From Spirogloea muscicola (Eukaryota): 64,000 nt of DNA. The first letter of the stretch is position 1. Each line of letters opens with the position of its first letter. The translations under genes and the position numbers were made by a program. Below are positions 33,020 to 55,670 of this stretch, in pieces. The notes under the pieces were generated by a model. The model was not told the origin of the DNA, did no database searches, and worked only from the letters and a program-made list of their open reading frames with translations. The stretch covers positions 804,619 through 868,618 of the forward strand of contig WELB01000012.1 in the NCBI GenBank assembly GCA_009602725.1, given 5' to 3'.

Positions 33020-36000
33020 GGGCCGCTTAGAAGTGCTCGCCCGTAGAGAAGAAAGAAAGTAGAAGAGAAACCGGCAAAGCCAGCCCTAAAAAGCATGGAG
33101 CGGACGTCGGAGGAGGGAGGGGGGAGGGAGGCCCGATGGCGCCCCGAGCGAGGGGGCCGGGAGAAGCTCGGGGGGGCCCGCGGGGAGGGAGGGCGGAGCT
33201 ACTAGAGGCTTCTGGGAACGGAGGAGGGAGGCGGGAGGTGCGGGGGCACTCCAGGCGGCTCCCGAATGTTCTTTTCACCGATGAGGCCCATCTGGGCGCG
33301 GCTGATCCAGCTGGGCGCGGACGGCCAGCCCCGTACACGACGCGCCGACCTGGTCGCCATCCCGCCCGGCGGCGGTCCCCGCATCATCGCTGATGTGGTG
33401 ACAACTGACTGCATCGACCCCGCCAATTCCCACCAGATCGGCGTCGTTTGCAGGGCACGCGGTCGGCCAGGGCGACCCGGGGCAAGGAGCGAAAATATGC
33501 TGATCACCCGGTTGGGGATGAATTCGCGGCCCTGGCGATGGATGTACACGGGGCTTTCGGCAGCCGCTGGCTGGATCTCCTTCAGCTTTCTACTGTAGGT
33601 TATGTAGGGCTTAAGATGTGCTTGCTTTTGTACTTGGCCATTTGGCCTTCGTTTGCTTCAAATACACGAAATTCTTCTTCAGCGGCTTGCCCGCCAGGCC
33701 ATTGCCCGGCAGCCGGGTCTGCCAGGGGCGATGCCCGGCTTCAACGCCGCCGGTTCGCTCTCACAAGTCATCCGCATGCGCCTGGCCGTATCGCCTCAAC
33801 GCTCCCTTGCCCACGTCGTCCACACGCGAGCAGGCCGTGCTATGGCCGCCGCCTCTGGGTCTCGGCGGAGTGCCTCTTTCACTGCAGCGAGCTACTCAGG
33901 GAAAGGGCTCGCCCATTGACGATAGGGGCTGGAAAAAGCCAGCCCAGAAAAGAATGAACTAAGGACGAGAAGGGGCCAGGGGAAGTACGAAGAACAACAA
34001 GCACTAAAAAGAAACGAAGCAGCTACGAAGCACTCAGTAACCCCTGCTAAGCAGCCTCAGGTCAGAGAGACTGGGTTCCAGGAATCGGGTCCCCTGGCCA
34101 GAGCCAGAGGCAGCAGCGAGACTCAGACCTGATGTTGCTCACTCGTGGGTACTGAGCTTCCCTCTGCATCGTCTTTGTGTTCTGCAGTGTTTTGAGTGTA
34201 GTCCTTTTTCCGGCTCGTCTTTCTTTGGCTTTTGGACATTGTCCATTACTTTTTGGGCTGGCTTTGCCAGCCCCTCTTATCTATGGGCGCGCACTTCTCT
34301 CCTGGATGCCCGGCCTCAACGCCGCCAGTTCGCTCGCCCAAGTCTTCCGCATGAACCTGGCGGTATCGCTTCAACGCTCCCTTGCCCACGCCGTCCACAC
34401 GCGAGCAGGCCGTGCTATGGCCGCCGCCTCTGGGTCTCGGCGGAGTGCTTCTTTTCTTGCAGCGAGCTACTCAGACTTGATGTTGCTCACTGGTGGGTAC
34501 TGAGCTTCCCTCTGCATCGTCTATGTGTTTTGCAGTGTTTTGTAATGTAGTCCTTTTCCCGGCTCCTCTTTCTTTGGCTTTGGACACCGTCCATTCTTTT
34601 TTGAAACAAAGTACGAGAAGGGGGCCAGGGGAAGCGCTAAGAAAAACAAGCACAACAAGAGACAAAGCAGCTACGTATTACTCAGTAACCCCTGCTAAGC
34701 AGCCTCAGGTTAGAGAAGCTAGGCTCCTGGAAGTGGGTCCCCTGGCAAAAAAGAAAGTGCTCACCTGTAAAGAAGAAGGGCTCGCAAAGCCAGCCCAAAA
34801 TAGAATGGACAAAGCCAAAGAAAGAGCAGCCGGAAAAAGGACCACTACGAAACACTGCAAAACACATAGACGATGCAGAGGGAAGCTCAGTACCCACGAG
34901 TGAGCAACATCAGGTCTGAGTAGCTCGCTGCAGGGAAAGAGGCACTCCGCTGAGACCCAGAGGCGGCGGCCATTGCACGGCCTGCTCGCGTGGCCAGAGC
35001 CAGAGGCAGCAGCGAGGGCTCTGCCGGCACGCAGGCGCAGGGCGCTGGCCATAGACCTTTGCAGCGAGACGGCCAAGCGCATCCGGTACACCTGCGCTAG
35101 CGACCCGGCTGCAGGAAAGTCCACTGGCTCCCCATGGAAGCGGCGGATATTAGACTGGCCAAATTTGTCTAAGGGCTTCAATATCTGGTGCAACAAAGCT
35201 CGCGCCTATGCTGTGGCTCGCCAACGCCGGCCTCCTGGCCGAGCGATGCTAGGCGCGGCCGGAACAATAGCGACGCCTGGACGTCGAACGGTCATCGTAT
35301 TATGTCTTAGTCCTTCGCACTCCGGTTCCTTCAGACCTTGTCCATTCCAATTGGGCTGGCTTCTCCCAGCCACCAGTCAATCTGGCCGCGCTTGCTTTGT
35401 TTTCCCCACCTCTTGAGCGGTCAATGACTCTCCAGGAAAGACAAAACTACACACCAAGACACGAAATGATGCAGATGGATGCTCAGTAAGCACGAGTGAG
35501 CAACAGCAAATCAGAATAACTCGAAGCAGGAAAAGCGGCACTCTGCCGAGACCCTGAGGCAGCAGCCATAGCGCGGCCAGCGCGCGTGCGAGCCCTCCCA
35601 CAGGAGTGTGTCGGGAGCTTTTGAGCCGACCGCAATCTTGCAGCTTCAACAGCAGCTTTTCACTGGGACAATGCATGAAAGCCCTCGGCCCTTGAATTGT
35701 TTTCAGTCTTTGTTCTTGGGATGAGCTTACGTTCTCACTGCCTTGGCTTTTTGGACCGTTTCGGACATTGTCAGCCTACCTCGTGACAGCCGGCGCGAGG
35801 ACCCGTGGCGTCGCGCACTCAAGGCATCCTCATCTCATTCGATGTAGCCCTATCGGGCGGCGTCATGGAGGAAAACAAACTGCAGCCACATGGCCTTCCC
35901 TGCTGACTAGAATTTATTGAGCAGCCACTCCTCAGTGGCTTCTTGCTTCAAGAATTAGCGCTTTCCAACTGCTTCAACATTGCTCATCGTTTTGTGGGCA

Positions 36001-36190
36001 TCTTCAGGCACCTTCGTAGCTGCTTTGCGCTTTTCAGGCCCCTTCATCATTTGGCCCCGTCGAACCTTTGTCAATTCTTTCTCGGGCTGGCTTTTCACAG
36101 CCCTTGCCCCCATTAGGAGTGCCGTTTCTTCTTTGTGGGCTGGCTTTCCTTTCACAGCCCTCGCCACCTTGAGAAGAGCTGCTTCCTCCA
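33020..36190. mobile_element. Cluster of nested and tandem CRE-like non-LTR retroelement 3' fragments, including the longest copy with a restriction-like endonuclease (RLE) remnant
   Basis: 33270-33586 encodes RRADLVAIPPGGGPRIIADVVTTD...KERKYADHPVGDEFAALAMDVHGAFG (PD-(D/E)xK RLE pattern R-x-D...D...K-x-x-KY). It continues RMRLAVSPQRSLAHVVH...LLTRGY*. Further copies occur on both strands. Confidence 0.85.
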
Positions 36191-37949
36191 TTGCGGCTGC
36201 TGCTGTCCTGGCCCACGACTGACTGCTGCCCTGGGGCAGCGCCTGGGTGCCTGACAGCGGCTGTCTTCGCCTCTCAATGCGCCACGTCTGCTGCGAGCAC
36301 CCCACAATAGCGCGCTTGAGAACAATTTGCCAGCAGTGGCATCGGCCCTCCAGCACACTCATGCACGTCAGGGAGCTTGTTCAGGAGGGCAAAGTGGTAG
36401 ACACCTGGATGCTGCTCCAGGTCTGTCAGCACAGTGCTCAGGACAACGTGCCCAACAGCACTTGCTGGGCGCTGCTTACAAGCCAGCTGCTCAAACTCAA
36501 CACTAACAAGGGAGTGCGCCCCACGTCGTCATCAAAAGTATTGCGTGTCATAGCATAGTCGGGCACTTTGGCAGCAGGATCTGGAGCAGGTCTAAAGGCA
36601 TATGGAGTATCAACAGCACAATGCAGGGCCCCGTGGCTATATTAAGGCTTATCTGAAGTGGTTTTAACTGAACTACGTTATCATTAGGAGGCATTCTGTA
36701 TTCCGTCTTGGGCGTCACCCTTGAATTGGACCCAGATCGAGCACAAGTATTGTGCTTAAAGTAGAGTATGTCAAGTGATTGTCAAGGGGTTGTATGCGGC
36801 CTGACCTTTTCTCCTGCCATGATGTCGCCACGGTTATGGCTACCAAGCGAGCTGCTCTGGAGGGCAGGGCTTCTGATCACGATCGTACAGTCGCCCTCAG
36901 GAATGCAGAAGCTTGACCCGCTCATTGGTCTCTTCTTTGTGCTTTCTGGCTTTCCTTGACAGCTGGGTTTAGGGTTGCCACCTCTGCATAGACAACTTAT
37001 CCTGCATTGGCTCCGCCCAGAAAGCAGGTGGTGGCTGGTTTGGAGATGCAGCCACTGATTTCAGGTAGGCGGCCCTGCGCAGTACCCAAGTGTACCTGCT
37101 GCAAGCTTACGCGGCTATGGAAGGTGTGATCTCGACTGCTGACCAATCGCGGTGTGCCTTTTGTAGCCACAGTATTGGTGCAAGCTCAATGTGACCTTCG
37201 CAGCAACACGGACGACTCTAGATATGATAGGTGCACTCGAGCAGTAGCAGCGTCTGATTCCTGCAGGGACGCCTCCTTTCTCTTCTCCCAGTGTGCACGA
37301 CTAGCCAGCTAATGCTGACGATGATTTTGATACCAAAATCTTCTTGAACGTCAACTGCTGGCTTTTCTTCATCTATCTGGCTGCATCCTTCAGTCAGTGC
37401 GTCTGGGAGCCCTTTCCGGTATTTGTTTTCTTCTGCTTTTGTTTCCCTCTCTCCCCTTGTTCTTGCAGGTCAGCCCTCGATGTCGATGAAGCTCATTGCT
37501 TTGCGCAACGCGCAGCTTCCAGAAGGTCCTCTGCTTATGTCAAGTTACTATCTTAACTCAAATTAAATCTGACGTCTGTGCATTTCTATCCATAGGCATT
37601 TACTAGCTTGCCATATGAAGTCGTCGCCCAGCTAGCGGCATTGGCTCCACTGTTACTCAAGGCTCGTAGAAATAACGTCCTGGTTTGTAAGCCTGAGTAT
37701 AAACAGTCCAGTGCCTTCAGTATATCCACTTTTCACACATGCAAGGATCATACAACTTGGGACTACTGTATGCAAGTATTGCTGATGTGTTGCACCCCCA
37801 CAAAGATAACAAATGAGAGCAATCTCACTCGGAAGGACGGAAGCCACCATGTCAGCAACAGGAAATACAATGCAACAAGAAGAACGCCATGCTGTGAGAG
37901 GCAAGTGCTCTCCCAAAGAAAAATGGAGAATGTACAAAGAGATGGAGGG

Positions 37950-39770
37950 CCGCAGCCCACGGCTGGCTTTCACAGCCGCTCTTTCCAGCGCTCTCAGGCT
38001 CATGCGGTCCACCCGCGCGCTGGCCGCGCTATGGCTGCTGCCTCAGGGTCTCGGCAGAGTGCTGCTTCTCCTGCTTCGAGTTATTCTGACTTTCTGTTGC
38101 TCACTCGTGGTTACTGAGCATCCATTCGCATCATTTCGTGTCTTGGTGTGGAGTTTTGTCTTTCCTGGCACTGTTCTGTGGCCTTTTGACGCCTGCGGAC
38201 AATGTCCATTCTTTTCTGGGCTGGCTTTGCTAGCCCTTCTATTTCTATGGGCGAGCCCTTCCCTTCAACATCAGCAACCGATTTCTCTTCCATTCCCGCG
38301 GATATTGGTGTCTCTCTTAGCGAGCTCATTGCCCATTTACCAGGACTTCTGTAAGGCTCGAATAGGCCTCCCTTTTCATGCGCACCGCGCGCCTTCGCTC
38401 TTCATTCCAGCCCCGAGTCCCCCGCGCCTTGAGGAGCCAAACATTCGTGGTATTTGAATCAAACGAAGGCCAAATGGCCAAGTACAAAGGCAAGCACATC
38501 TGAAGACTACATAACCTACAACTGGCCACGCTGCGGCAAAGGCCGCCCGCAGCAAGGCGGCCAAACACGCCGACCACCCGGCTGCAGATGAGTTCGTCCG
38601 CCTGGCTGTGGACGTGCACGGGGCTCTCGGGTCCCAGTGGCTCGACCTGCTGGCCAGGCTTGCAAGGCGCGCTGTGTCCCGCAGGCGCGGTAAGCCGGCT
38701 GACTTCAGCGCCGCTGGCTCGTGGGCCCAGGTATACCGCATGCGATTGTCAGTCTCCCTTCAGCGGTTCATGGCCCACGCCTTGCATCGAGAAAGGGCTC
38801 GCCCATGGAAAATAGAGGCTGGTAAAAGCCAGCCCAAAAAAGAATGAACAAAGGACGAGAAGGGGGCAGGGGAGTACGAAGTACGAAGAACAACAAGCAC
38901 AAAAACGAAAGCAGCTACGAAGCACTCAGTAACCCCTCCTAAGCAGCCTCAGGTCAGAGAGACTGGGTTCCTGGAAGCGGGTCCCCTGGCCAGAGCATCT
39001 GCGTGCTGGCCGTGCTCTCGCTGCGGCCTCGGGCTTTCGGCAGGGGGATAGTTTTCCGGCAGCTACCGGAGTTGAGGCTCCTCACTCGTAACTACTGAGT
39101 GGTCCATCCTCCTCCGTTCTGACATAGCATCTTCAGGCCCCTTCCTAGCTGCTTAGCGTTTTTTAGGCCCCTCCGTCATTTGGCCCCTTCGAACCTTTCT
39201 AAATTGTTTTCGGGCTGGCTTCTCACAGCCCTTGCCCCCGTTGGGAGTGCCACTTCTCACCTACAACAGATTGACCCGCTCAAAACCACGGGTCAAAACA
39301 TAAAGGTTGCTAATGGATGCCTGAATACTAGATGGCAGATACGAAGCCCTTCTGCGGCTTCTGCGGCATTGAGCGGCTTGCCTGCCAGGCCATTAACCGG
39401 CGGCCGGGTCTGCGAGGGGCGATGCCCGGCTTCTTCAACGCCGCCAGTTCGCTCGCACAAGTCTTCCGCATGCGCCTGGCCGTATCGCTTCAACGCTCCC
39501 TTGCCCACGCCGTCCACACGCGAGCAGGCCGTGCTATGACCGCCGCCTTTGGGTCTTGGCTGAGTGCCTCTTTCCCTGCAGCGAGCTACTCAGACCTGAT
39601 GTTGCTCACTCGTGGGTACTGAGCTTACCTCTGCATCCTTTCTGTGTTCTGCAGTGTTTTGTAGTGTAGTCCTTTCTCCGGCTCCTCTTTCTTTGGCTTT
39701 GGACATTGTCCATTCTTATTTGGGCTGGCTTTGCCAGCCCCTCTCTATGGGCGCGCACTTCTGCCACCAA
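37950..39770. mobile_element. Cluster of nested CRE-like non-LTR fragments (subfamilies D, F, A, C, B)
   Basis: Repeated C-terminal peptide ...RMRL(S/A)VSLQRS.AH...AAASG...LL(T/S)R(G/N)Y* with its 3' UTR hairpin. TSDs acctacaac (38514-38522/39259-39267) and gcatc (38784-38788/38995-38999). Confidence 0.87.
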
Positions 39771-40171
39771 CTAGAGCTCGCCCCAGCTTTCTGGTGCAAA
39801 GCATTAGCCTGAGCACTCTGCAAACACGCCGAAACTCGTCGTCGCAAGAACGACAGATATGCAGCCGGCAAGCCCATCTCAGCCGCAAACACATCTGCAC
39901 GTCATGTGTAGCCTAAATTGGCAATTTATTTTGCAGGAGTGTGGAGAATGGAGGACCTAAAGCGAGGAGCCCGGGCCCCGGCAGCGGCAGCGGCAGCCCG
40001 CACACAACGCCGCCAGAGTGGCCTGCGCCGCCGTCCGCGGGGCGCGGCCCAGCAGCAGCGGCGCGCTCCCAGCGAGAGTTTGCCATTTCCGGCTAGCCGT
40101 TGGCGGCGCCCGTTTAACGTGGCAGCTAAAGGGCTCCTCCTCCCACTGGGCCCGAGGCCGAGCCATCCCGC

Positions 40172-42129
40172 ATGCCGCCGAGGGCCGCCATCGAAAGCCT
40201 GCCGGACGAGTGCCTGACGGCGGTGCTGGCGCGCGCCGCCGCCAGGCCAGGCGGGCCGCCGGGCTGGGCCGCCATCGTGAGCGTCTGCCGCCGGTGGCGC
40301 CGCCTGGCCAAAGCCGCCATCACGGAGATCTCGCTGCGGGACCGGGGGTGCCAAGGGTCCGGCCCGGGGGAGCCGCCGGTGGTCGGCACTGGCCTGGCCG
40401 CCGCCCTCCCCGCTCTGACGCGCCTCAGCCTCCACTTTGACTCCGTGCCCCACGAGGACCTCCGCCACCTGTCGGCTATATCGACGCTCACCGACCTGCG
40501 AGTGGAGCTGGCCGGGCAGGAGCACAACGATGAGATCGACCACGTGGAGCTGCAGCGCACCTTTCGGTCTCTCACTGCGCTCAGCACGTCGTGCGAGCGC
40601 TTACACTACACAAGACGTGCCCTGCCTTGCCCCTGGCTGACGTCGCCGGCTTCACGGCACTCGAGAGCCTCACAGTGACCAATTCGCTAGCTACTGGTAC
40701 TTGCCTCATGCTGCCAAGTGCTATGCTACCCAAGTTCCTGCTGCGTGACTGCTGATACCACTTACTAGTATGTTGGAAGCCAAGCTCTTTCTTGCATTAT
40801 GAGGGTAACTGAGTGCTGACTTCAATTACCTGTTCTGATATTGCAGATGGTGACATCCACACGATCGCTACTGCTTGCCGGCACCTCACAGAGCTTCTGC
40901 TGTTGCATTCCGAGCAGGATCGGTCGGGTGGTTTCACTGCTGCTGGCTTGGAGTCGATTGGCAGGAATTTGCGCCAGCTTCGCAGATTCCGCGTACACTT
41001 TTGCCGCAGCTTCACGGACAGTGGGATCAGGCAGGTGGCTTTGGGTTGCACGCTGCTGCAAGACATCAGCATGCACTCCTGCCCCAATGTGTCTGCACAC
41101 TCAGTCCATGCGGTTCTTGAAGCATGCCCTGAGCTCAGGAGACTGCGGTTTCACCAGAGGTGGAATGACCCAGGGCTACGATTTTCACATGCCGTACATC
41201 TGACTATATCACGATTGGAAATGGTGGAGATCGTCATGTCCGATGATGCAGGTGCCAGTACGAATACTGCCATGGCCATCCTGGCTTTATCCTGCACGCA
41301 ATTGCGTGAACTACACGTGCACGCTGTAACCGACCCGCGCCCGGATGTCAGCAGGCTCGACCTATTGAAGAATTGTGCAGTCATGCCAGCGCTTGTGACA
41401 TTGACAATGACGGGATTCCAGTCCATCGAAATGACATCCTTTGCAGCATTCTTAGTCGGTGCCCCGCTGTTGGAGAACTTGACCTTGGAGGATTGCAAGT
41501 TGCTCGGTGTTGTGCAAGCACTACCCATGATGGTTTCTCTTCGCTCCATTGAGTGTTGTTCATCATTGGTTGGGCCATTGTTCGACTACTGGGACTTTGG
41601 TAAATGGTGCCACAACCTGACTTCCTTGCTCACTTTAGCACAATCTGACGGGGAGAACTTGGCCTTATCGCTTGCCGGATGCAACAAACTTGTGACTTTG
41701 AAAATTGAGGCCTATCATCGGTTGCGGCAAAGGCGGCTCCCATGGACCTGTCCCCCGCTTGGAAGCCTGAGAACTCTTATCTGCGAAAATGTGCATTGGC
41801 AAGACTTGGCTGCGTTAGCAAGGGCGTCCCCACGGTTGGAAGAAGTGCACTTACAAAGCTGCACCACCATGAACAAGAAGGCCATCCTTGGTCTTCTCTC
41901 CTCGTGCCCCCGACTTGGTTATATCAGAATCCTGGGCTGCTCTAAGCTTTCTCCAGTAGTGATGGATCGCTTGGCATACGGACTGAATGTCCGACGAGGT
42001 CATGTGTATGAGAGAGTGCATCTAGAGTTAGTAGATGGAAAGTGGGGACTCAATGGGGGGAAAGGCTCCATGATGTATTCTACGTATCGAGTTCATCGTT
42101 CTCAATGTAACACTGAGAACCCAAGTTGA
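40172..42129 (+). CDS. F-box/LRR (FBXL/RNI-like) protein, 2 exons; possible frameshift near 40620
   Basis: N-terminal F-box IESLPDECLTAVL...IVSVCRRWRRL. Exon 2 (from about 40847) is full of cysteine-containing LRRs (IATACRHLTEL, FCRSFTDSGIRQVALGCTLLQDI, CPELRRL, SCPRLGYI). Confidence 0.82.
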
Positions 42130-42559
42130 GATGGAACTTAGGCTCGAGCAAAGTTGATGTCTCTCATACTTCTGAGGTACATGGAAGTAGCAATTTTAGA
42201 ATATGATCCTAAACATTTTGGGTGATCACCACATGCAAATGGCCTCTCACAGTAGCATTGAATGGAAGTCGTTTAGCTTAAGGAACTTACATTTTCTGTT
42301 GAGAGCCTTTTGTTATAGCAACTTAAATGCAGGTTAGCATGTTGATTGCACACAGCTGCCATTGTTGGCCACACCAGAAGGAAAGATTGGGAAGGAGGCA
42401 GCCCACCAAAGCAGAAGTTGCCGTTGGAGCGGGCTGAGTACATAAATTCATAAATGATGCCTGCACTTGCTGCAGCGAGTGAAAAGGTGCTTGCGGTCAA
42501 ATAAGAGAAGACTACTTGAAGTATGTGAACTTAGGCTGCTTCTGCTCGTGGTGGCCCTG

Positions 42560-43533
42560 TTACAGCGACCTGGCGCTCCCTCAGGGTCGACGACCCGTCT
42601 GGCAGCCCTGTGTGGGTGTAATAATCCATGCCTGGGCCTCGCACTATGTTCAACACGATCTTGCTTCCCATCGGGAAGGTGCTCTTCATCAACGGTGCCA
42701 GCTCGGGCTATGCAGGTGTGACGAGGGATCAGCGTTGGCTCCATTGAGATCTGTGCTGCATACTTCAAGAAGTCATCTGATGCAACCTGCGAGGCTGTAA
42801 GCTAGTGATATCCGCAGTCAGACGCACATCTTCTGCTGCATGGAATACGCTTGTGCAAATTGAAGTCGGCCGCAGGTATCACACCGCTTGCACGACAGCA
42901 TCAAATCCATACCTTCGCAATCCAACCGTGTCGCCCGGCTCGGCAGCGAGGTTTGGCGCTTTGTCACCGTCCACCATCGCCAGGCTGTTCCCGGCGTCTG
43001 CCACTCTCGCCCATGAATACAGGCCCATCCTGGCAGGAGGAAGCCCCTACACGTTCACCGCCCCCAGCCAAGTACGCGGGGGCCATGTAAACGTCTGTGG
43101 AGGCCTTCTCGCCACAGTACCTCGACTACCATATGAGTGCACCGCCCATCATCTCCCCGTCCTTGCCTACCTCCCTCCTCTACTCCCAGAACGTCCCCAT
43201 CACGTTCTCGGCGGCGAAGGCCGTCTCTGTTGTGCTGATCGACCCCGGCGTGAGCACTCATGGCCTCACCATGGGTCAGCGCATGGTCAAGCTGCAGTGA
43301 CCAAGTTCGTCGCCAACAGCAATGGCGCAATCTCAACAACAGTCACCCTCCCGCCCAACAGCAACATCGGCCCGCAGGAGTACTACTTGCTCTTTGTGAT
43401 CGTCACACCTGACGGTGTTGGCGCAGCCGTTGTGCCATCTATATGTAAGTGGGTGCAACTAGGTGGGATCCCAGCCTACCCGCCACCAGCCCCTTCGCCT
43501 TACCCCTCACCGCCACCATCAAGCTCTCGTTGA
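42560..43533 (+). pseudogene. 5'-truncated pseudogene of a glyoxal-oxidase-like (AA5 Kelch + DUF1929) C-terminal half
   Basis: ...SPVWV**SMPGPRTMFNTILLPIGKVLFINGASSG (in-frame TAA TAA), PSTIARLFPASATL, frameshift, VEAFSPQYL...DPGVSTHGLTMGQRMVKL, frameshift, PQEYYLLFVI...VPSICKWV. Paralogous to the 3' half of the gene at 44557-50030. Confidence 0.85.
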
Positions 43534-44556: not shown

Positions 44557-47500
44557 TCATGGGGGTGCTGGTCCAACACTGATCCATATACCAGTCGAGG
44601 GCACAGCTGGCCCATTCGCTACTGCCTGCACCACGACAAAAAGCAGGTAGAAGCCCGGGGGACAAGTGGACGGCGTTGGGGGGCTGGTGAAGGACACAGT
44701 GTAGTTCCCTGTTGAGGTCTTGGTTGTACTGCTGGAGTCGAGCACGAGTGCACGCTGTCCCATGTTCCGGCCGTGTGTTGCTACTCCAGGGTCCATGAGA
44801 AGCACAGCCGCGGAGCTGACCGAGCCAGCTGAGAAGGAGATTTGATTGGCGTCATTATACTGAAGGTATTCGGGTAGTGAGGCAGGGTCAACACTAGGCT
44901 GAGGAGAGAGCTGCGCGGACAGGTAGGGCGGTGAGAAGGCCTCCACGGAGAGCGGGACGGTGGAGGGGTACTGCAGTGGGGCCTTTGCCACGGTGCTGCC
45001 CCCTGCAATGATCACTGTTCCATCAAAGCTGAGGGTTGCTGATGCTTGGTCTGGCCTGGCGATGGTGGAAGGTGGCAGGACTCGGAATCTCGAGGAACTG
45101 CCAGGTGGCTGGCTTGGATCCAGAAGGAACGGGGTCAACAGAGGCTCGTCTGTGGTATTGCGCACTGCAGAACAGAGGAGCACTCAGACAAAACATGGCG
45201 GCAAAGGTACATCGATGATGGCAGCTCGGGGCAAGCCAAAGTTCGTGGCGAGCAGCGTGACCTGAGGAGCTCAGCTTAAGATGATCGAATACTGTGACGT
45301 TGGTTTGGGATGCTTGTGCAACCAGTATTCACCTGCACTGTGCAAGTGAGATTGGTGCATGCTCACAACAGCAGTACTCAGTCAACAGAGTTTCATGTTC
45401 ACCTGCTGAGCCAGATGATGCGCCATTGATGAAGAGTACCTTGCCATCGGGCAAAAGTACAGTGCTGAACATGGTTCGCGGCCCTGGCATGTCCTCATAC
45501 GTCCAGGTGGGTGAGGGATCACTGACATGGAGAGTACCGCAAGAAGAAGTGGCAGGGAGAGCGCCTCCGCAGACCATGATGACCGCAGCAAAGCCGGCTG
45601 CAGCACGCAGTGGAAGCATGACACTGCCTGAAGCGTACGGGCTAGTCCTCGACAAGGAATTGGGGTCTCCACTGACATTAATGTCGGGAAAACTTCGGGT
45701 GCAGTTCCCGCTTCCAGCAGTGATGTTCAGCTCACACGCCTGTGACGCAAGCACAGCAGTGTGTTGTCAATCATTCATGACCATATGTAACACACGCAGC
45801 GGGAAACAGGTTGGAAGGCAGGATTGCTCAGCAAAGGCAGGAAGGTGAGGAGATCTGCGACACGCTGGCTTCTCTCATAGGCTTCTGCACCTTGTTGTTG
45901 ACAAGCAGAAAGAGGTTGCCACTAGGAAGAAGGTAGATGATCGGGTAGAGGTCGTAGTATCCAGCAGTCAAAAGGAGCGGGATTGAATGCGTGTTAGACC
46001 TCTCAAGAGGTCTCTGCTTCAAAAGCAGCTCATATGAGTAGCTTGTTGCAGCAATCGAGTCTGTGTCGTTGTTCAGGCCCTCGCCACCAACAAAGATGAC
46101 ATTGCCGTCCTGCAGCCTCTGTGCGGATGAAAAGAACCTGGTGACCAGCCCTTATGGAGCAGCTCAGCAAACGAGCATCGCCATGCTCGTGAAGCGGTTG
46201 CAGCATCTATGCTGCTGAAAGTACATAACCAAACTTCCTCTTCATTTGTTCAAGACAAGCCCAAGCACGTCAAGGCAACGGCGAAGCAGGGAGCTGGTCA
46301 GGCTGACCTTCTTGTTCTGAGGGCCTGCTCAGGTGAGTCAAATTCGGCTGAGCCGTACGGCTGTGGATCGAAGCTCCTGAGGGCATACCAGCCCTTGGGG
46401 TCCGAACTGTTGCCGATGCCGCCAGCAACCAGCACTGCGCCTGTGGATGTGGTGTGACCGCAAGCGCCATACGTGTTTGTCACGGGCCCATGGAGGCCAC
46501 GCACCTGTGCAGTCATAACTTGTTCAAGGCGCAAACCAGGTATCAAGTCCACTGTCACAGTTTTGAACTCCAGCTGCAGACAAGCTCAGTATCTGCAGAT
46601 TGACAGACCTGAAACGTGGTTGTGCTGAACTCCACAGCATGAGCGAAGCGGGACGCATCATCACTGGCCCTGACTCCCGTCTCCACGATATCCGTGCGAT
46701 CCACAAAAAGGATGGTATTGTGCCGAGTCAGCACTGCCAGGGTGCCGGAGATACCAATGTCGGTGCTGAGCACAGCGAAGGCGCCAGCAAATGGAGGAGG
46801 TGGAGGGTGGACGGGCGGCCGTGGCGGCGGAGGACTGGGCGGCCTGGGAGGGAGAGCTCTTGGCGGCGGTGGGGAGGGAGGCGGCGGGGAGCTGGGAGGT
46901 GGGGGCCGCGGCGGCCTCGGCGGCGGGAAGTGGGGGCTCAGTGGCGGATTTGGGCTTCTGGGCGGCGGTGCTGGCTGCGCACTACAGCCTGGGATGGCAC
47001 ATCTGTCGTGGCCGGTGGCCTTGTACACACCACTCGGGGTCAGCATGTACGGATCGCCAATGTAGTCCTCACCCCAGGTGTGGATCTCCGGCACCGAGAG
47101 CGGACTGCCGGGTGTGTGGTTGAACGGGATGGGGAGAGTGGATTGGAGAGCCGCGTAGAAGCTGACAAACTGCTTGGCCATGGTGGTCCACCGCGGCTGC
47201 CCGGGCCCGCTCGTGTCGGTCGCGATCCATGCCGCGCCATACTGGTCGACGTAGAAGTACTTGCCACCGTAGCAAGGGACTCGCGGCGAGCGGTAGATGG
47301 GGCCGCCGATGACTGCAACGGAGGTCACTTTGACATGCGCGTCCTGGTGCGTGTAGGTCAACCTCGGCCACTGCGGCCACAAAGGAAAGAGCAAGCTTGT
47401 GTCAGTGATGCTCTTTCTGCAGAAGTTGTGAAAGCGCTTTAGGTCTCTCCAGCTTTGGCAAGACAACTGCTTGATCAATGAGGGAGACGCAAGTCATTGG

Positions 47501-50030
47501 GCAGCAATGGCTGGACCTCAAGGCCTCCCACCTTAAGCGTTCCGAAGATTTTGTGGGGGTCGGTGAAGCCGCCTGGCGGGGCATGCTTGTCATACTTTGC
47601 AATCTTTGTGAAATTCAACGTTCCTGTGCCAACAGAGTGGCAGCTGCATATTCAGACGTGCACCTTGCCATACGTCCGGTGCCATAAGAGCTGGCACCAG
47701 CAGGTAGCCCATCAGTGCGCAGCAGCAAGTGCTGGTGATGCCTTGGGGAGGTCCTGCCAGGGGCCGGAACTTCACACGCACCTTCAAACATGCGCCAACC
47801 GTAGTTTCCTCCAGCCACAATGACATCAATCTCCTCCATGGTGTCCTGCAGTGCAGGAAGTCTAAGCTGGTGAGGGCTCCCGATGCTTGCAGTAGAGGCA
47901 ACGATCCATATGAGAGAAAGCCAAGCATCTACAACGGCGACAGCAAAGGAGAGCGGCATCTGGCTAATGCAGAATAGTCAGAGCGTGGCTGGCTGTCAGA
48001 CCTGGCCAACATCAGCACAGAGGAAGTCATCATTGTCGCGGTCAAAAGTGCAGCTCCAGGGGTTGCGCAAGCCAAGCGCATAGATTTCGGGGCGAATCCC
48101 TGAGACGCCAACGAATGGGTTATGTGACGGTATCCCGTATGGACGGCTTGCTGTGTAGTTATCCACGTCAAGCCGCAGTATTTTCCCGAGGAAGGTGGTG
48201 CCCCGCTGTGCGAAGTTGAAGATGTCGCCAGCTCCACCCCCATCACCGGACATGTAGTACATGTACGGCTCCAGCACAGTGCGCCGGAAGAGCAGGTGGC
48301 CGCCGTTGTGGTTGCTGTATGGCCTGCATGCAAAGCCCGTGGGACTCGCCAGCCAAAGTCAGCATCCACTGGGTGGCAGCTGCTGCAAACATGATGCCTC
48401 ACCTGCCAAGGAGCTCCCCTGGCGTTCTCTACCTCGCGAATGTGAGGAGCCTCCGGACTTCAGCTTTGATGGCGACTGTCGCTGTACGTGGGCTGGAGCC
48501 CGCACTGTACTCGGCAACAATCGTGTTGGCCTCACACAAGGGCTGCTGCGAGGCTCCAACGTTGGGCTGCGGGATGTGACACTGATTGACCGCATTGCAC
48601 TCGCACGGCCCTTGGCAGTCCGGGTACTTGGTGCCATTGCAGATGTACGACACAAAGAAGCGGCCATTGACAAGGTAGTCCGGGTGCAGTGCAAACCCCA
48701 GCAGGCCACGCTCGCCGTTGGCTAAAGTCCTCGAGTGAATATCAAGAAACTGCACATGTGATGAGCGTGATCAGGGCGGACCTTCGCCAAGGCGTAGCGG
48801 CCTCGTCACAGGAGGCGGTAGGCGCTGGCGCTCGAGCAGCACCAGCCAGCAGCGGGCTTGGCATAAGGAGGTTTGACTTACAACGGTCCTGTTGGCAAAC
48901 CTCTTGCCGCTGCCTTCTGGCGGGACCTGCGCAAGAAAAACATAGCCGCTGCGCGTGTGCAGGAAGACGCGGTTGGAGCCGTCGGGGTGCGGCAGCATGC
49001 CCAGGTAGTACCCATCATCGACCCGGTCGAGACAGATGTTGGGCAGCGGCGGCGCCGAGCTGGTTGGCGGAGGCGGCACGTACGGCGGCGGCGGCGGCGC
49101 TGGGGGGAGCGGGCCATTGGGATCGTAAGGCAAGCCGGAGAAGCAGCGGTCCTGGTATGGCGACGCGCAGAAGTCGAGCCGAAATGCAGCCAGCGTCGGG
49201 TACTTGTCGCGCAGGCGGAACGCTGCCGGGCTTGGCTGCACGTTGAGCTCGTCGCGCTGTGCCTGCAGGTACTGGAGGTAGAGCGGCGAGTACGTGACGT
49301 TGAGGCCAGCGCAAGCTGCGTACGCGCCGTCGCAGTAGCTCCCCAGGCAGAGCAGCGGCAGAGCGCGCGCCGCGCCGACCTCCGAGTCGAACAGGTGCGA
49401 CGCCCACGGGTCGCATTGCTACAATGGACGCACGGCAGGTCGTTAAAGCCCGTCAGCGAGCTTCGCGACGGGGCATACTGTCAGTCGATCAGCGACCATG
49501 GTGGCCGCCACTTGCAGCGACCAGGTAGACGAGGGAGCTCACCGCGCAGGTGGCGAGCTGCAGGAAGGTCCGGCAGCCCGCAACCTCGTCGGCGGAGCCA
49601 CCCGAGAAGGCCATCTGGGCGGCCTGCCGCTGCAGCCGGACGTCCGCGTCGTAGTCGCAGCACCCCAGGTGGGCGTACGCGCCGCCGTGGAGCTGCATGC
49701 AGAAGGGGCCCGCGGGGGACTGCGGCACAGGCCCGGCTGCGAGCGCCACCACCAAGAGCTCCGATCAGGGCGCCAATGCAAGGCACCACGGCGCCCGCAG
49801 CACAGCTGTCGCGGTGACGGAGACGTGATCTATGTCAAGCCAAGGAGCTACCGACGAGAGCTGACGACACAGTGGAGCTGGCCACGCCTGCGAGAGCAGC
49901 GGCGGCGGTGCTCACAGAAGTCCTCGCAGATGGGGTGCGCCAGCGCGCTCCCGACGAGCAGCAGCAGCGCGGCGGCCACGGCGCGCGCCGGCCGTCCGCT
50001 GCTGCGGCGGGCGTGCCGCCGAGACGCCAT
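44557..50030 (-). CDS. Secreted HIPL1-like protein (cysteine-rich domain + PQQ glucose/sorbosone-dehydrogenase propeller) fused via a Pro-rich linker to a glyoxal/galactose-oxidase-like domain, 12 exons
   Basis: Signal peptide ...ALLLLVGSALA-HPIC. HIPL1 motifs GCCD, CAQCDPWASHLF, ICLDRVDDGYYLGMLPHPDGSNRVF, GFALHPDYLVNGRFFVSY, NHNGG, GDGG, LGKILRLDVD, EIYALGLRNPW, CADVGQDTMEEID, GGNYGWR, WGED. After an SPPPP linker come GLOX motifs DIGIS, DRTD, AHAVEF, DLYP...LLPSGNLF, MPGPR...LLPDGKVLFING, VEAFSPPYL, TH..NMGQR, PPGFYLLFVV. All introns are GT-AG and phase-compatible. Confidence 0.9.
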
Positions 50031-50229: not shown

Positions 50230-50520
50230 GCCACGTGGCGAGCAGCCGCGCGGCCAGCTCCGCGCCTCGCCACCTGGCACGCCAGCGCGGCGGGGCCCGC
50301 CATGCGCGCGTCGCACGTGCTGCCAACGACCGGACGTCAGCGCTGACGTCAGCGGTGGCGCTTCGCGCCGGGGGCGCCTGTCGCGACGCGCCTGCGGCCG
50401 TCCGACGCGCCGCATCTCTCGGCGCAGTTCTCGCCGCACGACGCGGCGCGGGACCTTGTAGTGGGGATGGGGACGGCCCTGTTGCCCCAACTGGCGGCCG
50501 CCGCGTGGGCCCACGTGTTG
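50230..50520. promoter_or_regulatory. Cluster of ACGT-core (G-box / CRE / ABRE-like) palindromes upstream of the HIPL1 fusion gene
   Basis: GCCACGTGGC 50230-50239, GCACGTGC 50313-50320, GACGTCAGCGCTGACGTC 50333-50350 overlapping TGACGTCA 50344-50351, and CCACGTGT 50511-50518. Confidence 0.45.
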
Positions 50521-50619
50521 GGGCGCTTGCAACCGCCGCAAGCATCTCGTGCACCCCGGCCACACCTCAGCACGACGGCGGCTCGTTGACCGCCGCTGGC
50601 CCTCCAAGCTTGCTTTCTG

Positions 50620-53600
50620 CGCCATCCGGCCTTTTCTGGCTTTGCCAGCCCCTCTTCTCTATGGGCACCACTTCTTCTTTCAGACCTTGTCCATTCCTTT
50701 GGGCTGGCCTCTCACAGCCACTGCTGTCAACTTGGAAGCGCTGTATACCAATACGACCACCGTCTCGGCCTGGCCTGCCTTTTGCCGCTCAGATGCCTTG
50801 TCAAGTCGTTTCTTCTTTCTCTTTCGAGCTGGCTTTTCCACAGCCCTCGCCCCCTTTGGATGAGCTCACTTTCCTGACGCCTCTTTGCCTCCATGTCGGA
50901 GAGAAGAAAGGGCGATGGCTGTGAAAGGCAGCTGCGCAGAAAAGGAGATACAAATGGAGAGGTACAGGAGCTTCTCTTTACGCCATCTGGGGTACGCAGG
51001 CAGGTTCCGTGCTGCGGGCTCGATGGCCCAGGTTTCTCAAATGCGCCTTTCCACCTCGCTGCTGAGGTCCCAGGCGTTCGTTTGCCTTGCAGCTGCTTGC
51101 TGGCCGTTGCATTGGCTGCCGCCTTCAGTGGCGCCTGTACATCCCTTCTCCTAACCATTTCTTAGTCACGTCCAAGTATTGACTTAGGGAGGCTGAGTCA
51201 CCGGTGCCTAGCCAAATCTTTCTGCTAGTCTGCGCTTCCTTTGTCGTCGTCTCCCTATAGCTTTGCCCGACCATTTATGCTTGGCAAGAAGAGAAGTGGC
51301 TCTTTCAAAGGGGGCAAGGGCTGTGAACAGCCGGCCCAAAATAATACAAGGTCCGAAGGGGCCAAAAGTGCTGTTGCAGAGCTCGGGTCGGATGGATCAA
51401 TTAGTAACCACGACTGAGGCGCCGTAATCCGAAGGACGAGCAGCTGGATTGCAATCCCCTGACGGAACCCAGAGGCTGCAGCTAGAGCACGGCCAGCACG
51501 TAGGTGCATGGCGTGGGCCATGGACCGCTGGAGGGAGATGGAGAGGCGCATGCTATGAACTTGAGCTAGCGAGCCAGCGGCGTTGAAGTCAGCCTGCTCA
51601 CCTCGCCTGCGGGACACAGCGCGCCGCAGAGGAGCACCTGTCAGGCGGCCTGCTGGCCTCTACTGGCTCACCAAAGCAAAGCAACCGCGGGGGCTCTTGC
51701 TCGGCGACAAGACTCTGCGGCCCCAAGGTCACAGCTGGAGCAGCCGACGCCCGACACCGCCGTTGGTCTCCGGTCGTCTGCGCCGGCGGCGCAGACGGGG
51801 ACTTGACAGTCGGGCCCCGGCAAGTGTACCGCATGCGCTTGGCCGTCTCGCTGCAGAGGTCTATGGCCCGCGCGCTGCACCTGCGTGCAGGCGGAGCCCT
51901 CACTGCTGCCTCTGGCTCTGGCCTGGGGACCCGCTTCCAGGGACCCAGTCTCTCTGACCTGAGGCTGCTTAGCAGGGGTTACTGAGTGCTTCGTAGCTGT
52001 TTCGTTTCTTTTTTGTGCTTGTTGTTCTTCGTACTTCCCCTGGCTCGGCTTCTGACTCGGGGTTACTCAGAGCCCATATGCTGTATCCACTGGCATCGCT
52101 GTATCACTTCAGCACCTTCGGCCCTTTGAGCCTTGTCCATTTCTGGGCTGGCTTTCCACAGCCCTCGCCCTTTTTTAAGAGAGTATACTTCTGCAGTGTG
52201 GGACGTGGGCTTGCTGCTGTAGATGCACTTTTCCTCACTTTCCCAGTCGCAAGCTACTCTGACATGCGGCTACTAAGTGGAGGTTATCATGTATTCATCC
52301 TCTTTGGCACTTGCTGAGCTGTGTGCTTCAGCACTTTTCGGCCCTTTCGGACCTTGTCAACATTACTTCGGGCTGGCTTTTCAAGGCCTTCGCCCCCTTC
52401 TGGAAGAGCCACTTTCTTGCGCAGTTGCCATAGCTGTGTGATTCAGCGCTTCGGGCCTTTTCGGACCTTGTCCATTCAATAGCCTCCCACATTCATCCCC
52501 TGTAAATCAGATCTCGTTCTCAAGGCTCCCTGTATGCATTCGCTGGCTTTTGTAGCCGCCCCTTATGGTAGCAGGCGCTTCTTTTAGGGCTGGCCTCTGT
52601 CAGCCCCAAATCTCTATGGGCGCGCAATTTCTTTCTACCCTGTGACGTGCTTCTCCGGGCAGCCCCGGCGACCGAGCCTGCGCTGCTGCTGAGGGCCCTC
52701 ATGGACAGCCTGTGGGACGAGTGCTTGGCGGTGCTGGCGCGCGCCGCTGCGATGTCAGATACTTCGCCAGCTTTGGCTACGACTTGTGCCGCCCGCCAGT
52801 GGTGCTGCCTGGTCAAAGCTGCCGTCTAAAATTTCCAGCTTTGTGGACCTTGTCTATGGGCGAGCCATTTCTTGTTCATTCTTTTGTGGGTTGGCTTGTC
52901 CCAGTCCACGCCCCCTTAAGAGCTGATTTTGTTTCCAGGTGCTTCAGGCTTCCTACTGGTCAGAGAAGGGCTCGCCCATTGAGGATAGAAGATAGGGGCC
53001 GGGAAAAGCCAGCCCAAAAAAGAATGAACAAAGTACGAGAAGGGGCCAGGGGAAGAAAGTGCTCGCCCATAGAGAAGAGGGGCTGGCAAAGCCAGCCCAT
53101 CTTCTAAAGTCCCAAGTCAGAGAAAGAGGAGCCGAACAAGCACTTAGAAAAACAAGCAGAAGAAGAACCTAAGCAACTACGAAGCACTCATTAACAACTT
53201 GTAACTGTTGACAAGGGCGGGTTATTAAGCGGATTTCCTCATGTTTCCTCTTGCGGGTTTACTTGCTTTCCTGAGTGATCTCCATCTTTTCCGGATCTGT
53301 CAGACCTAGTTCAGTCTTTTCTTCAGACCTATATCTCCTTTTGGGCTGGCTTTTCACATTTGAGGCTCCTCATTCGTAACTACTTAGTGGTCCATCCTCC
53401 CCCGTTCTGACATAGCATCTTCAGGCCCCTTCGTAGCTGCTTAGCGCTTTTTAGGCCCCTCCGTCGTTTGGCCCCTTCGAACCATTGTCAATTCTTTTCG
53501 GGCTGGCTTTTCACAGCCCTTGCCCCCATTGGGAGTTCCACTTCTCTTTTCACAGCCCTTGCCCCCAGTGGAAGAGCCACTTGGGGCTGGCCTTCTTCTA

Positions 53601-55670
53601 CAGCCCATGCTCGCGCTCTTTGGAAGCCGCTCCTTTTTGAAAGAGCATGTTTTACTTTGAAAATTCTGCTCTTTCTGACGGCTGGCCCTTACTTTTCTTT
53701 TACGGCACCTTCTTGGGCGTTGGATGTTGTCCATTCTTTTTGGACTGGCTTGGACCTGCCGGCCAAGCTTGCGCGGCGCGCTGTCCCGCAGGCGAGGTGA
53801 GCCGGCTGACTTCAACGCCGCTGGCTCATGGGCCCAGGTAGAAGGAACCTCGCCCTACACACGCAGTTAGGGTGAGCAGTCCTTCTTGAGTTCGGCTGTG
53901 GGGGTTTTAGGGACCAACCCACTACACAGGCAAAGCACTAGCGCATAGGCGCAGCGGAAGACAGGCCCCGTGGCGCCGCCGTCCGGCGGCGACTCCACCT
54001 CCTGGGCGCAGGCCGGCGCAGCAGGCCCCGCAGCAAGGTGCGGCGGCGGCTGCGGCGGCGAGCAGCGGCAAGGCTGCTCCTGGGCTTCACCGGCTCGAAC
54101 TCCCCCCGAGCCTCGGCCCCCAAGGCTCTGCGTGCTTCCCCGTGCCACCCCCCCCTCCAGGGGTGTGAGCGGGTCGCCCTATGGCCTGCCAGGCGGCGGG
54201 CCAAAGATCCTCCCTTGAACGGGCGGATCCTAGCGAGGGTATTCCTGGACGGGCGGGGCCCGCCTCTGGGCGGGCCACTTGCCCGGCAAGTCAGCCCGCC
54301 ACCTGGCGGGCCCACTTGTCCCAAATAGCCGGTCATGTGATGCCAACAGAGCCACTTGGCTTAACCAAACGGCTGGTTCATTACACCAGGGGACCCGCTT
54401 CCAGGAACCCAGTCTCTCTGACCTGAGGCTGCTTAGCAGGGGTTACTGAGTGCCTCGTGGCTGCTTAGTATCTTCTTGTGCTTGTTTTTCTTAGTGCTTC
54501 CCCTGGCCCCTTCTCGTCCTTTGTTCATTCTGTTTTGGGCTGGCTTTTTCCAGCCCCTATCCTCAATAGGCGAGCCCTTCTTCTTAAGTCTATCGCATGC
54601 GGTTGTCAGTCTCCCTTCAGCGGTGCATGGCACATGCCTTGCATCTGCGTGCTGGCCGGGCTCTCGCTGCAGCCTCTGGCTGTCGCCAGGGGATTGTTTT
54701 CCCGCTAGTCTGTCGGATTTGAGGCTCCTCACTCGTCACTCCTCCACCCGTTCTGCCATATCGCTTTAGGCGCTACTACTAGAGGTACTGCGATTCCAGT
54801 ACTGAGAGTCCCCTTTGCTGCTGTCTTAGTACTTAGCACACCGGCTCCTTCAGACCTTGTCCAATTTATTGGGCTGGCCTCTCCCAGCCACCAGTCAATC
54901 TGTCCGCGCTTTTGTCCGTTTCTAGGCCCCTCCGTCATTTGGCCCTACAAACCTTTGTCAATGCCATGCAGCAGGGTCGCTAGCGCAGGTGTACCGCATG
55001 CGCTTGGCCGTCTCGCTGCAGAGGTCTATGGCCCGCGCGCTGCACCTGCGTGCAGGCAGAGCCCTCGCTGCTGCCTCTGGCTCTGGTCAGGGGACCCGCT
55101 TCCAGGAACCCAGTCTCTCTGACCTGAGGCTGCTTAGCAGGGGTTACTGAGTGCTTCGGAGCTGCTTCGTTTCTTTTCTGTGCTTGTTGTTCATCGTACT
55201 TCCCCTGGCCCCTTGTCGTCCTTTGTTCATTCGTTTCTGGGCTGGCTTTTTCCAGCTCCTATCCTCAATGGGCGAGCCTTTCTTTGTCAATTCTTTTCAG
55301 AGCAAGCGCGGCCAGATTAACTGGTGGCTGGGAGAGGCCAGCCCAAAAGAATGGACAAGGTCTGAAGGAGTCGGAGTGCTAAGGACTGAGACAGCAGTAA
55401 GCGAACTCTCAGTAACCTCTCGTCAGTAGATGCAAGTCTGAGTAGCTAGCAGGCGGGCTTTTCGGGCTGGCTTTTCACAGCCCTTGCCCCCACTGGGAGA
55501 GCCACTTCTTCCGCTTGGCCAGCACCTCTTCTTTAAGGGCGCGCCATTCTCTTCCAGTCAGCGGCGCGGGCAGCAGCTTGGCAGTGTTGTTCATATCTCT
55601 ATATCTGGGCTGGCTAATCACAGCCATCGTCCTAAAATAGAGCCGTTTCCTTTAAGTGGAAGAGACTTCC
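50620..55670. mobile_element. Dense cluster of CRE-like non-LTR retroelement 3' fragments on both strands
   Basis: Many copies of the RMRLAVSLQRSMA.../LLSRGY* peptide end (e.g. 51290-51625 minus, 51810-52050, 54975-55285) and of the GGGCTGGC...CAGCCC 3' hairpin. Confidence 0.87.
52698..52829 (+). pseudogene. Isolated F-box motif fragment
   Basis: LMDSLWDECLAVLARAAAMS...AARQWCCLVKAAV* aligns by eye with IESLPDECLTAVLARAAAR...CRRWRRLAKAAI of the F-box gene at 40172. No LRR continuation. Confidence 0.65.

Follow-up and report, generated by a model that had tools for sequence, protein, structure and literature searches.

Can one gene of a green alga close to land plants, Spirogloea muscicola, encode a HIPL1 protein, an extensin-like proline linker and a copper-radical-oxidase (AA5) module in a single chain and, if so, what would such a protein do? 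The question is raised by a locus at 44557..50030, on the minus strand of the window analysed here – a stretch of 64,000 nucleotides from contig WELB01000012.1 (assembly GCA_009602725.1, positions 804,619 to 868,618). The architecture is real, hidden by annotation and built from known parts. Its best reading, which we hold at roughly even confidence, is a secreted wall glycoprotein in which a rod and a pseudo-oxidase would stand in place of a glycosylphosphatidylinositol (GPI) anchor.

The gene comprises 12 exons coding for 1263 amino acids, with its ATG at 50030 and its TGA at 44557; all 11 of its 11 introns are GT–AG, the model reads without a stop, and no N occurs within the gene. Its start, stop and 5474-bp span are those of a public model of the same locus, P0136. 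Exons 1–6 lie at 50030-49916, 49736-49543, 49418-48882, 48749-48433, 48323-48002 and 47845-47782, and exons 7–12 at 47623-47532, 47370-46609, 46504-46308, 46137-45891, 45739-45403 and 45164-44557, all on the minus strand. Translation, splice sites and alignment single out exon 8 (46609..47370, minus strand; 762 nt), flanked by AG before and GT after, whose 254 codons remain open from the HIPL1 end through the linker into the AA5 start, with five and four stops in the other two frames. Both this open exon, with the ends quoted for it from the HIPL1 C-terminus to the glyoxal oxidase start, and the gene span had been put forward in an original prediction made from the DNA letters alone, and both agree with the 12-exon model.

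Transcript evidence comes from a run, X1 (36% of words), whose status as RNA is a guess, no listed run being on record as RNA; it behaves as spliced RNA, since depth is zero in five bins inside introns 7 and 8. Its contigs show joints at 10 of the 11 introns, eight of them of exact length, those of introns 2 and 3 stemming from diverged copies. An exact 389-nt contig without a single difference (47182-46794) runs from inside the HIPL1 part to the linker end, and a contig of a sister copy (about 90% identical, with 31 differences over 320 nt) continues from mid-linker through the AA5 start and is spliced to exon 9. In X1, contigs of the exact copy leave 46607-46793 uncovered and exon 1 is without depth, though such a hole in filtered contigs proves nothing; the two halves were not ranked by contig depth. 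Another HIPL1 transcript runs into a different Pro-rich tail (a loose end at 46985). Separately, a second spliced joint at 45091-45403 skips 311 nt and has a non-AG end; it probably belongs to a paralogue.

The public annotation tells a different story. P0136 is 100% identical to residues 708–1263, by which exons 8–12 are independently checked, and it shares residues 1–38; the whole HIPL1 part is left out as an 'intron' of 2.96 kb. This intron was rejected: X1 has the exons that it skips in spliced form, the 15 listed joints do not include it, and accepting it would mean losing a domain in which 22 of 24 Cys are conserved. The models of the sister loci – s123, s210 and s390, which were judged from protein models and coordinates – hold one half each: P0002 only the HIPL1 part (85% identical), P0004 only the AA5 part (93%), while P0003 consists of a Pro stretch and AA5 (73–74%) and lacks a signal peptide. 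Together with P0136, all four public models are interrupted inside the linker or at its edge, a pattern that suggests difficulties in annotating low-complexity DNA. As P0136 jumps over the HIPL1 part, proteome surveys cannot see the fusion, and the case shows more broadly that proteome-based domain surveys lose genes when models break at Pro-rich linkers.

Might the locus nevertheless hold two genes, or an assembly chimera formed at the Pro-rich repeat? The sister models P0002, P0003 and P0004 with one half each would suit this explanation, as would the fact that no contig bridges the domains; yet the shared break is better put down to annotation, the exact contig crosses from HIPL1 into the linker, and the gene is free of N. 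Moreover, stop codons, Met, AATAAA and TGTAA are all absent from the linker exon, and the protein has no Met between residues 657 and 989, so that the AA5 half is left without a start or signal of its own and two separate genes are hard to build. Such a split or artefact is very unlikely, and the locus can be regarded with high confidence as a single gene.

The encoded protein consists, in order, of a signal peptide, a Cys-rich domain, a Pro spacer, a GSDH propeller, a Pro linker and an AA5 propeller with an E-set domain. Pfam applied to the open reading frames of the exons finds GSDH, Glyoxal_oxid_N and GO-like_E_set, with most fragments below the curated cut-off; self-built profiles place GSDH at residues 231–669 (E 9e-116) and AA5 at 741–1260 (E 2e-150), both profiles including the fusion model itself. 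The predicted signal peptide (residues 1–31; 49938..50030, minus strand) has a basic n-region and a hydrophobic core and ends in ALA followed by HPIC; it is suggested by hydropathy – the most hydrophobic 19-residue window of the whole protein begins at residue 17 – and by alignment of the N-terminus with the start of an Acer HIPL1, from which secretion of the fusion protein may be inferred. At the other end of the HIPL1 part, the GPI-type tail of plant HIPL1 proteins is missing: where Acer has a spacer and a hydrophobic tail, the Pro linker stands, and the C-terminal hydropathy peak (1.4, sampled) falls in the E-set strands. The domains and the SPn linker had been anticipated from the letters; they are borne out by these comparisons, as are the signal peptide and the absence of a GPI-type tail.

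Upstream of the gene, within 500 bp of the ATG (50232-50517), stand three CACGTG boxes and one TGACGTCA; the three are among only eight CACGTG in the window, and 0 of 1000 local shuffles reached three, in a test that was chosen after the boxes had been seen.

The linker (residues 680–740; 46792..46974, minus strand), covered by the exact contig, contains 40 Pro in 61 residues, with SPPPP motifs at residues 708, 713 and 726 and neither Tyr nor Met; the shorter spacer before the propeller (residues 206–229; 49041..49112, minus strand; from the translation) has 15 Pro in 24. Chimeric extensins have been defined by at least two SPPP motifs, a signal peptide and a domain foreign to hydroxyproline-rich glycoproteins (HRGPs) (PMC4769139); the three SPPPP, the predicted signal peptide and the non-HRGP domains place the fusion within this definition. 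A further explanation would make the chain a polyprotein, from which cleavage within the linker later releases HIPL1 and the pseudo-oxidase separately. The linker does contain six Arg, and the two halves are otherwise separate proteins, but no dibasic site is present, and rods bearing glycosylated hydroxyproline resist proteases; we regard such processing as highly improbable.

What kind of HIPL1 protein does this gene encode? Its N-terminal part carries both domains that mark plant HIPL1 proteins. The Cys-rich domain of HIPL1/HHIP type (residues ~32–200, exons 1–3; 49128..49937, minus strand) matches the repeats of an Acer HIPL1 (E 3e-7 to 1e-6) and a starfish HHIP-like protein (E 7e-12), and residues 1–700 are 37% identical to Acer HIPL1, with 22 of 24 Cys in common. 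The Acer negundo protein in question, P0006 (2094 aa), has three HIPL1 units in a row and is itself probably a merged tandem array. The GSDH/HHIP-type β-propeller (residues 231–669; 47005..49037, minus strand) is supported by Pfam, profile and alignment with Escherichia coli Asd. Both in sequence and in fold, the best matches of this half are HHIP, then Asd and sGDH; the fold was taken from a structure model of the sister protein P0002 (HHIP at E 4e-22, then Asd and sGDH), which is of moderate quality, with a predicted local distance difference test (pLDDT) of 68, and was used for fold only. At alignment column 646, Phe occupies 113 of 121 rows, so that this blade type is common to the HHIPL-like subgroup rather than special to the alga.

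A different explanation would make this propeller an active sugar dehydrogenase using pyrroloquinoline quinone (PQQ) and Ca2+, with the dead AA5 module as its targeting domain, like the carbohydrate-binding module on fungal AA12. Relative to Asd, the propeller keeps H393, D415, R474, N475, G494, E500 and the NYGW loop, and thereby the catalytic His, the Arg–Asn pair and the Ca2+ loop expected of a PQQ dehydrogenase; none of the 121 aligned rows departs from R474 or N475, while the counterpart of H393 is Gln in the Acer copy shown. By sequence alignment only, the basic residues for the PQQ carboxylates – to which, we take it, Arg406 of sGDH also belongs – are not matched, E642 and H644 standing at Asd R341 and R343 and Y591 at K314, the last in a gappy stretch. 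In sGDH, His144, Arg228 and Asn229 lie at the quinone, with Gly247 also named (PMC6881810); H393, R474, N475 and G494 align with Asd H147, R214, N215 and G234, motifs that we infer to correspond to these four residues. Likewise, sGDH Arg408 and Lys377 bind the PQQ carboxylates (PMC6881789), yet fungal AA12 enzymes bind PQQ through a different set of residues that includes a His (PMC6881789), and the His is kept here. Against activity stand, apart from the changed basic residues, the HHIP chains as the nearest structures and the literature searched, which yielded no work on HIPL1 and PQQ in plants. Nor are plants known to make PQQ. An active dehydrogenase of this kind therefore seems unlikely; PQQ use by the HIPL1 half is doubtful from its residues, and the propeller most likely acts, by analogy with HHIP, as a Ca2+/sugar- or protein-binding unit.

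The verdict on the second half is firmer. The pseudo-copper-radical-oxidase module, an AA5 propeller with its E-set domain (residues 741–1263; 44560..46791, minus strand), was delimited by alignment and by a model of P0004, a sister protein 93% identical to it, which Pfam also assigns to AA5; this model (pLDDT 91) has 9N3U as its best structural match, with a template-modelling (TM) score of 0.81. In 9N3U, the enzyme FgrAldOx, the copper ligands are C450–Y510, Y738, H739 and H826, and all first-shell residues are described as conserved across characterised AA5 enzymes (PMC13094651). At the corresponding positions the fusion has G814, F869, D1100, Q1101 and H1192: the Cys–Tyr pair, the axial Tyr and one of the two His are gone, and only the last His is kept. 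Among the 158 AA5 modules aligned, 47 were dropped for gaps; the other 111 can be read at every one of the five sites, and 89 of them have the full set. With four of the five first-shell residues replaced, the module cannot be a copper-radical oxidase, a conclusion drawn from the aligned residues and held with very high confidence.

This bears directly on what was first proposed, namely a double-propeller protein coupling a quinoprotein-like module to an oxidase-derived one. The two propeller folds stand, on the strength of the models of the sister proteins P0004 and P0002, but the oxidase chemistry does not; redox coupling between the modules is unlikely, part of the PQQ-binding set being missing as well. 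A two-enzyme redox protein, in which a PQQ dehydrogenase would work with an H2O2-making copper-radical oxidase, could appeal to the completeness of both folds, the kept H1192 and the presence of C816 only two residues from the lost Cys; set against the replacement of the Cys, both Tyr and one His at sites conserved across characterised AA5 enzymes (PMC13094651), it is hardly credible.

Is the dead module a recent casualty or a protein that is still maintained? Nine Spirogloea modules have the Cys>Gly replacement in common, and eight of the nine keep the last His. Together with P0148 they form one clade (FastTree support 0.996, 56 sequences), sister to an intact Spirogloea AA5 (1.0), and all its named members are from Spirogloea. 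Its lineages are only ~40–47% identical to one another, which makes the ligand loss old. P0003 (73–74%) and P0004 (93%) show the same five site letters in open frames, the sister contig has ten silent and five replacement differences from the fusion, silent sites being 26% of the total (p 0.001), and the fold is intact in the model of P0004; the module is probably under selection as a protein. As an observation apart, several copper-site residues are also missing from two AA5 proteins of Myrmecia and Edaphochlamys, P0229 and P0226, which lay outside the tree of 56 sequences, possibly through independent losses.

The neighbourhood supplies further members of the clade. Tail-to-tail with the fusion gene, 1024 bp away and outside its open reading frame, alignment reveals the 3' part of a related AA5 gene without the ligands (42550..43533, plus strand), a pseudogene with two in-frame stops and frameshifts; at s123, P0004 and P0148 have the same tail-to-tail layout, 1030 bp apart. 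The odd tail of P0002 turns out to be an antisense reading of such a dead-AA5 neighbour (80%, E 5e-10), so that s210 can be counted as the third locus of this group. Spirogloea muscicola probably went through a genome triplication. One sister locus, s123, keeps the AA5 half; s210 leaves at most 1762 bp where linker and AA5 would need 2439 bp, if its introns are similar.

Such a background invites another explanation, that of a young and near-neutral fusion arisen after genome duplication, in which a HIPL1 gene ran into a dead-AA5 neighbour via Pro-rich ends, each half stays conserved for the role it had before, and the junction is inert. The fusion is indeed found at one locus, s210 seems to be without the AA5 half, and both families are much expanded in the species: in PMC11096116, supplementary file 5 gives 53 Glyoxal_oxid_N proteins for Spirogloea, 7 for Penium, 1 for Mesotaenium and 0 for four Zygnema genomes, and the supplement gives 18 GSDH proteins for Spirogloea vs 3 for Mesotaenium. 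Against an inert junction, the ~90% identical sister transcript and P0003, the latter without a signal peptide, carry a Pro linker before the same module, so that linker and module are older than this copy, and silent changes are in excess. We consider a near-neutral origin quite unlikely.

The dead module also seems to have been combined with other partners. P0005 (1218 aa) and P0137 (1242 aa) are modelled as an intact AA5, an SPn/HPPPP rod and a dead AA5, and a 30-nt RNA loose end matches P0005. In the model of P0291 (s42:146492-157507, plus strand), a dead AA5 is followed by leucine-rich repeats (LRRs), a single transmembrane helix and a kinase. Neither the start of this model nor the stretch ahead of the LRRs shows an evident signal peptide; as modelled, the protein is possibly a receptor kinase with a pseudo-oxidase ectodomain. 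The broader lead is this dead-AA5 clade and its kinase fusion.

The wall-glycoprotein reading can now be spelled out. The fusion would have originated when a HIPL1 gene with a Pro-rich tail joined a Pro-linked member of the locally expanded dead-AA5 clade. Its product would be secreted to the wall or mucilage as a glycoprotein, and its linker, once hydroxyproline-glycosylated, would form a stiff rod spacing the two units. The pseudo-oxidase may still have the surface with which plant galactose oxidases bind sugar; one of these, RUBY, acts on rhamnogalacturonan I galactan (PMC10980338) and so provides a precedent for the substrate. The module could bind the galactan- or pectin-type substrate of the active plant galactose oxidases and thereby, in place of a GPI anchor, tether HIPL1 to wall polysaccharide. 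By analogy with these enzymes, this glycan-binding tether role is as plausible as not. GSDH;Malectin proteins, of which the supplement of PMC11096116 has three in Chlorokybus, set a precedent for the design. Unlikely as a whole is the wider idea that Spirogloea reuses an ex-oxidase as a wall-glycan-reading module, shuffled via extensin rods onto HIPL1, an active oxidase and, as an undescribed ectodomain, an LRR receptor kinase, and here aiming a HIPL1 propeller with its catalytic His/Arg/Asn kept at its polysaccharide substrate; if true, it would give a direct handle on the role of plant HIPL1 proteins.

Several observations weigh against the wall-glycoprotein reading. The propeller retains the catalytic His/Arg/Asn, so that its role may go beyond binding; the neighbouring dead-AA5 copy is a pseudogene, showing that the clade also decays, and the s210 copy is probably without the oxidase half. 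X1 represents one study, possibly of the same strain as the assembly; its contigs provide no joint for intron 1, and none of those listed bridges HIPL1 and AA5 in one copy. The selection test comprises 15 changes in 52 codons. P0291, P0005 and P0137 are automatic models, and P0139 and P0290 extend over no more of P0291 than its AA5 part. Finally, Myrmecia and Edaphochlamys have ligand-less AA5 proteins too, as single cases.

How widespread is the architecture? An AA5 profile match was found in none of 120 listed long GSDH hits (the best 120 of 434), and a GSDH match in none of 164 AA5 proteins (149 from the best 150 of 2794, plus 10, plus 5 from Spirogloea), the search that gave the 10 being weak, as it missed P0005, a known long relative. 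In a scan of 32 AA5 proteins for appended domains, WSC, chitin-binding and B-lectin were among those found, but GSDH was not; a metagenome scan gave no locus, and Atlas gave only ordinary AA5 clusters. Among the sequences searched, the HIPL1–AA5 fusion is found at one locus in one alga. Where PMC11096116 tabulates domain combinations for 16 genomes, GSDH with Glyoxal_oxid_N has no row among 17 GSDH and 6 Glyoxal_oxid_N places, nor is there one for Glyoxal_oxid_N with a kinase, and 'glyoxal' does not occur in the main text or in the searched text of seven supplements of PMC10834447. The literature searched contains no work linking HIPL1 and glyoxal oxidase, and the expectation that the architecture lacks a published description stands for that literature, the Spirogloea genome paper left aside.

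Although the fusion is so far confined to one species and one complete locus, a natural, non-anchored HIPL1 joined to a wall-enzyme fold suggests that HIPL1 works on or at wall polysaccharide, and makes available a soluble construct with which to test PQQ, Ca2+ and glycans.

Elsewhere in the window, a gene at ~40175-42110 (plus strand) has an F-box-like start and LRR-like repeats, recognised by eye in the translation, and ~33300-39800 and ~50500-55600 are dense in short interspersed repeats. Certain motifs recur among these repeats, which lie on both strands and may be SINE-like or the decayed ends of retroelements.

How, then, does the protein compare with known systems? With land-plant HIPL1 (rice OsHIPL1; repeat 1 of Acer P0006) it shares the signal peptide, the Cys-rich domain and a GSDH propeller with the plant Cys insert, but it has a Pro rod and a 520-residue AA5 module in place of the Ser/Pro/Thr spacer and hydrophobic tail, and its propeller is preceded by an additional Pro spacer; plant HIPL1, which affects rice seed vigour, is described as having no known biochemical function (PMC9241377). 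It resembles sGDH, E. coli Asd and fungal AA12 in fold and in the His, Arg–Asn, Gly and GGNYGW motifs, while it lacks the C-terminal Arg pair and Lys and has an added Cys-rich domain. Animal HHIP/HHIPL proteins, its best matches in sequence and fold, share the Cys-rich domain and propeller, whereas the two long HHIPL matches listed show no AA5 module or Pro rod. AA5 oxidases (FgrAldOx 9N3U, galactose oxidase, Arabidopsis RUBY) have the same propeller and E-set and the last His, yet differ in four of five first-shell residues and are not C-terminal passengers on HIPL1. Spirogloea P0005/P0137 and P0291 belong to the same dead-AA5 clade (41–42% identity), with other partner domains and, save for the 30-nt RNA end of P0005, as automatic models. 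Chimeric extensins, finally, share the signal peptide, three SPPPP and non-HRGP domains, so that the fusion fits the class of 'other chimeric EXT' (extensin) proteins (PMC4769139); it differs from them in having no Tyr-X-Tyr, in a rod that makes up 5% of the chain and in a length below the 2000-residue line for long chimeric extensins.

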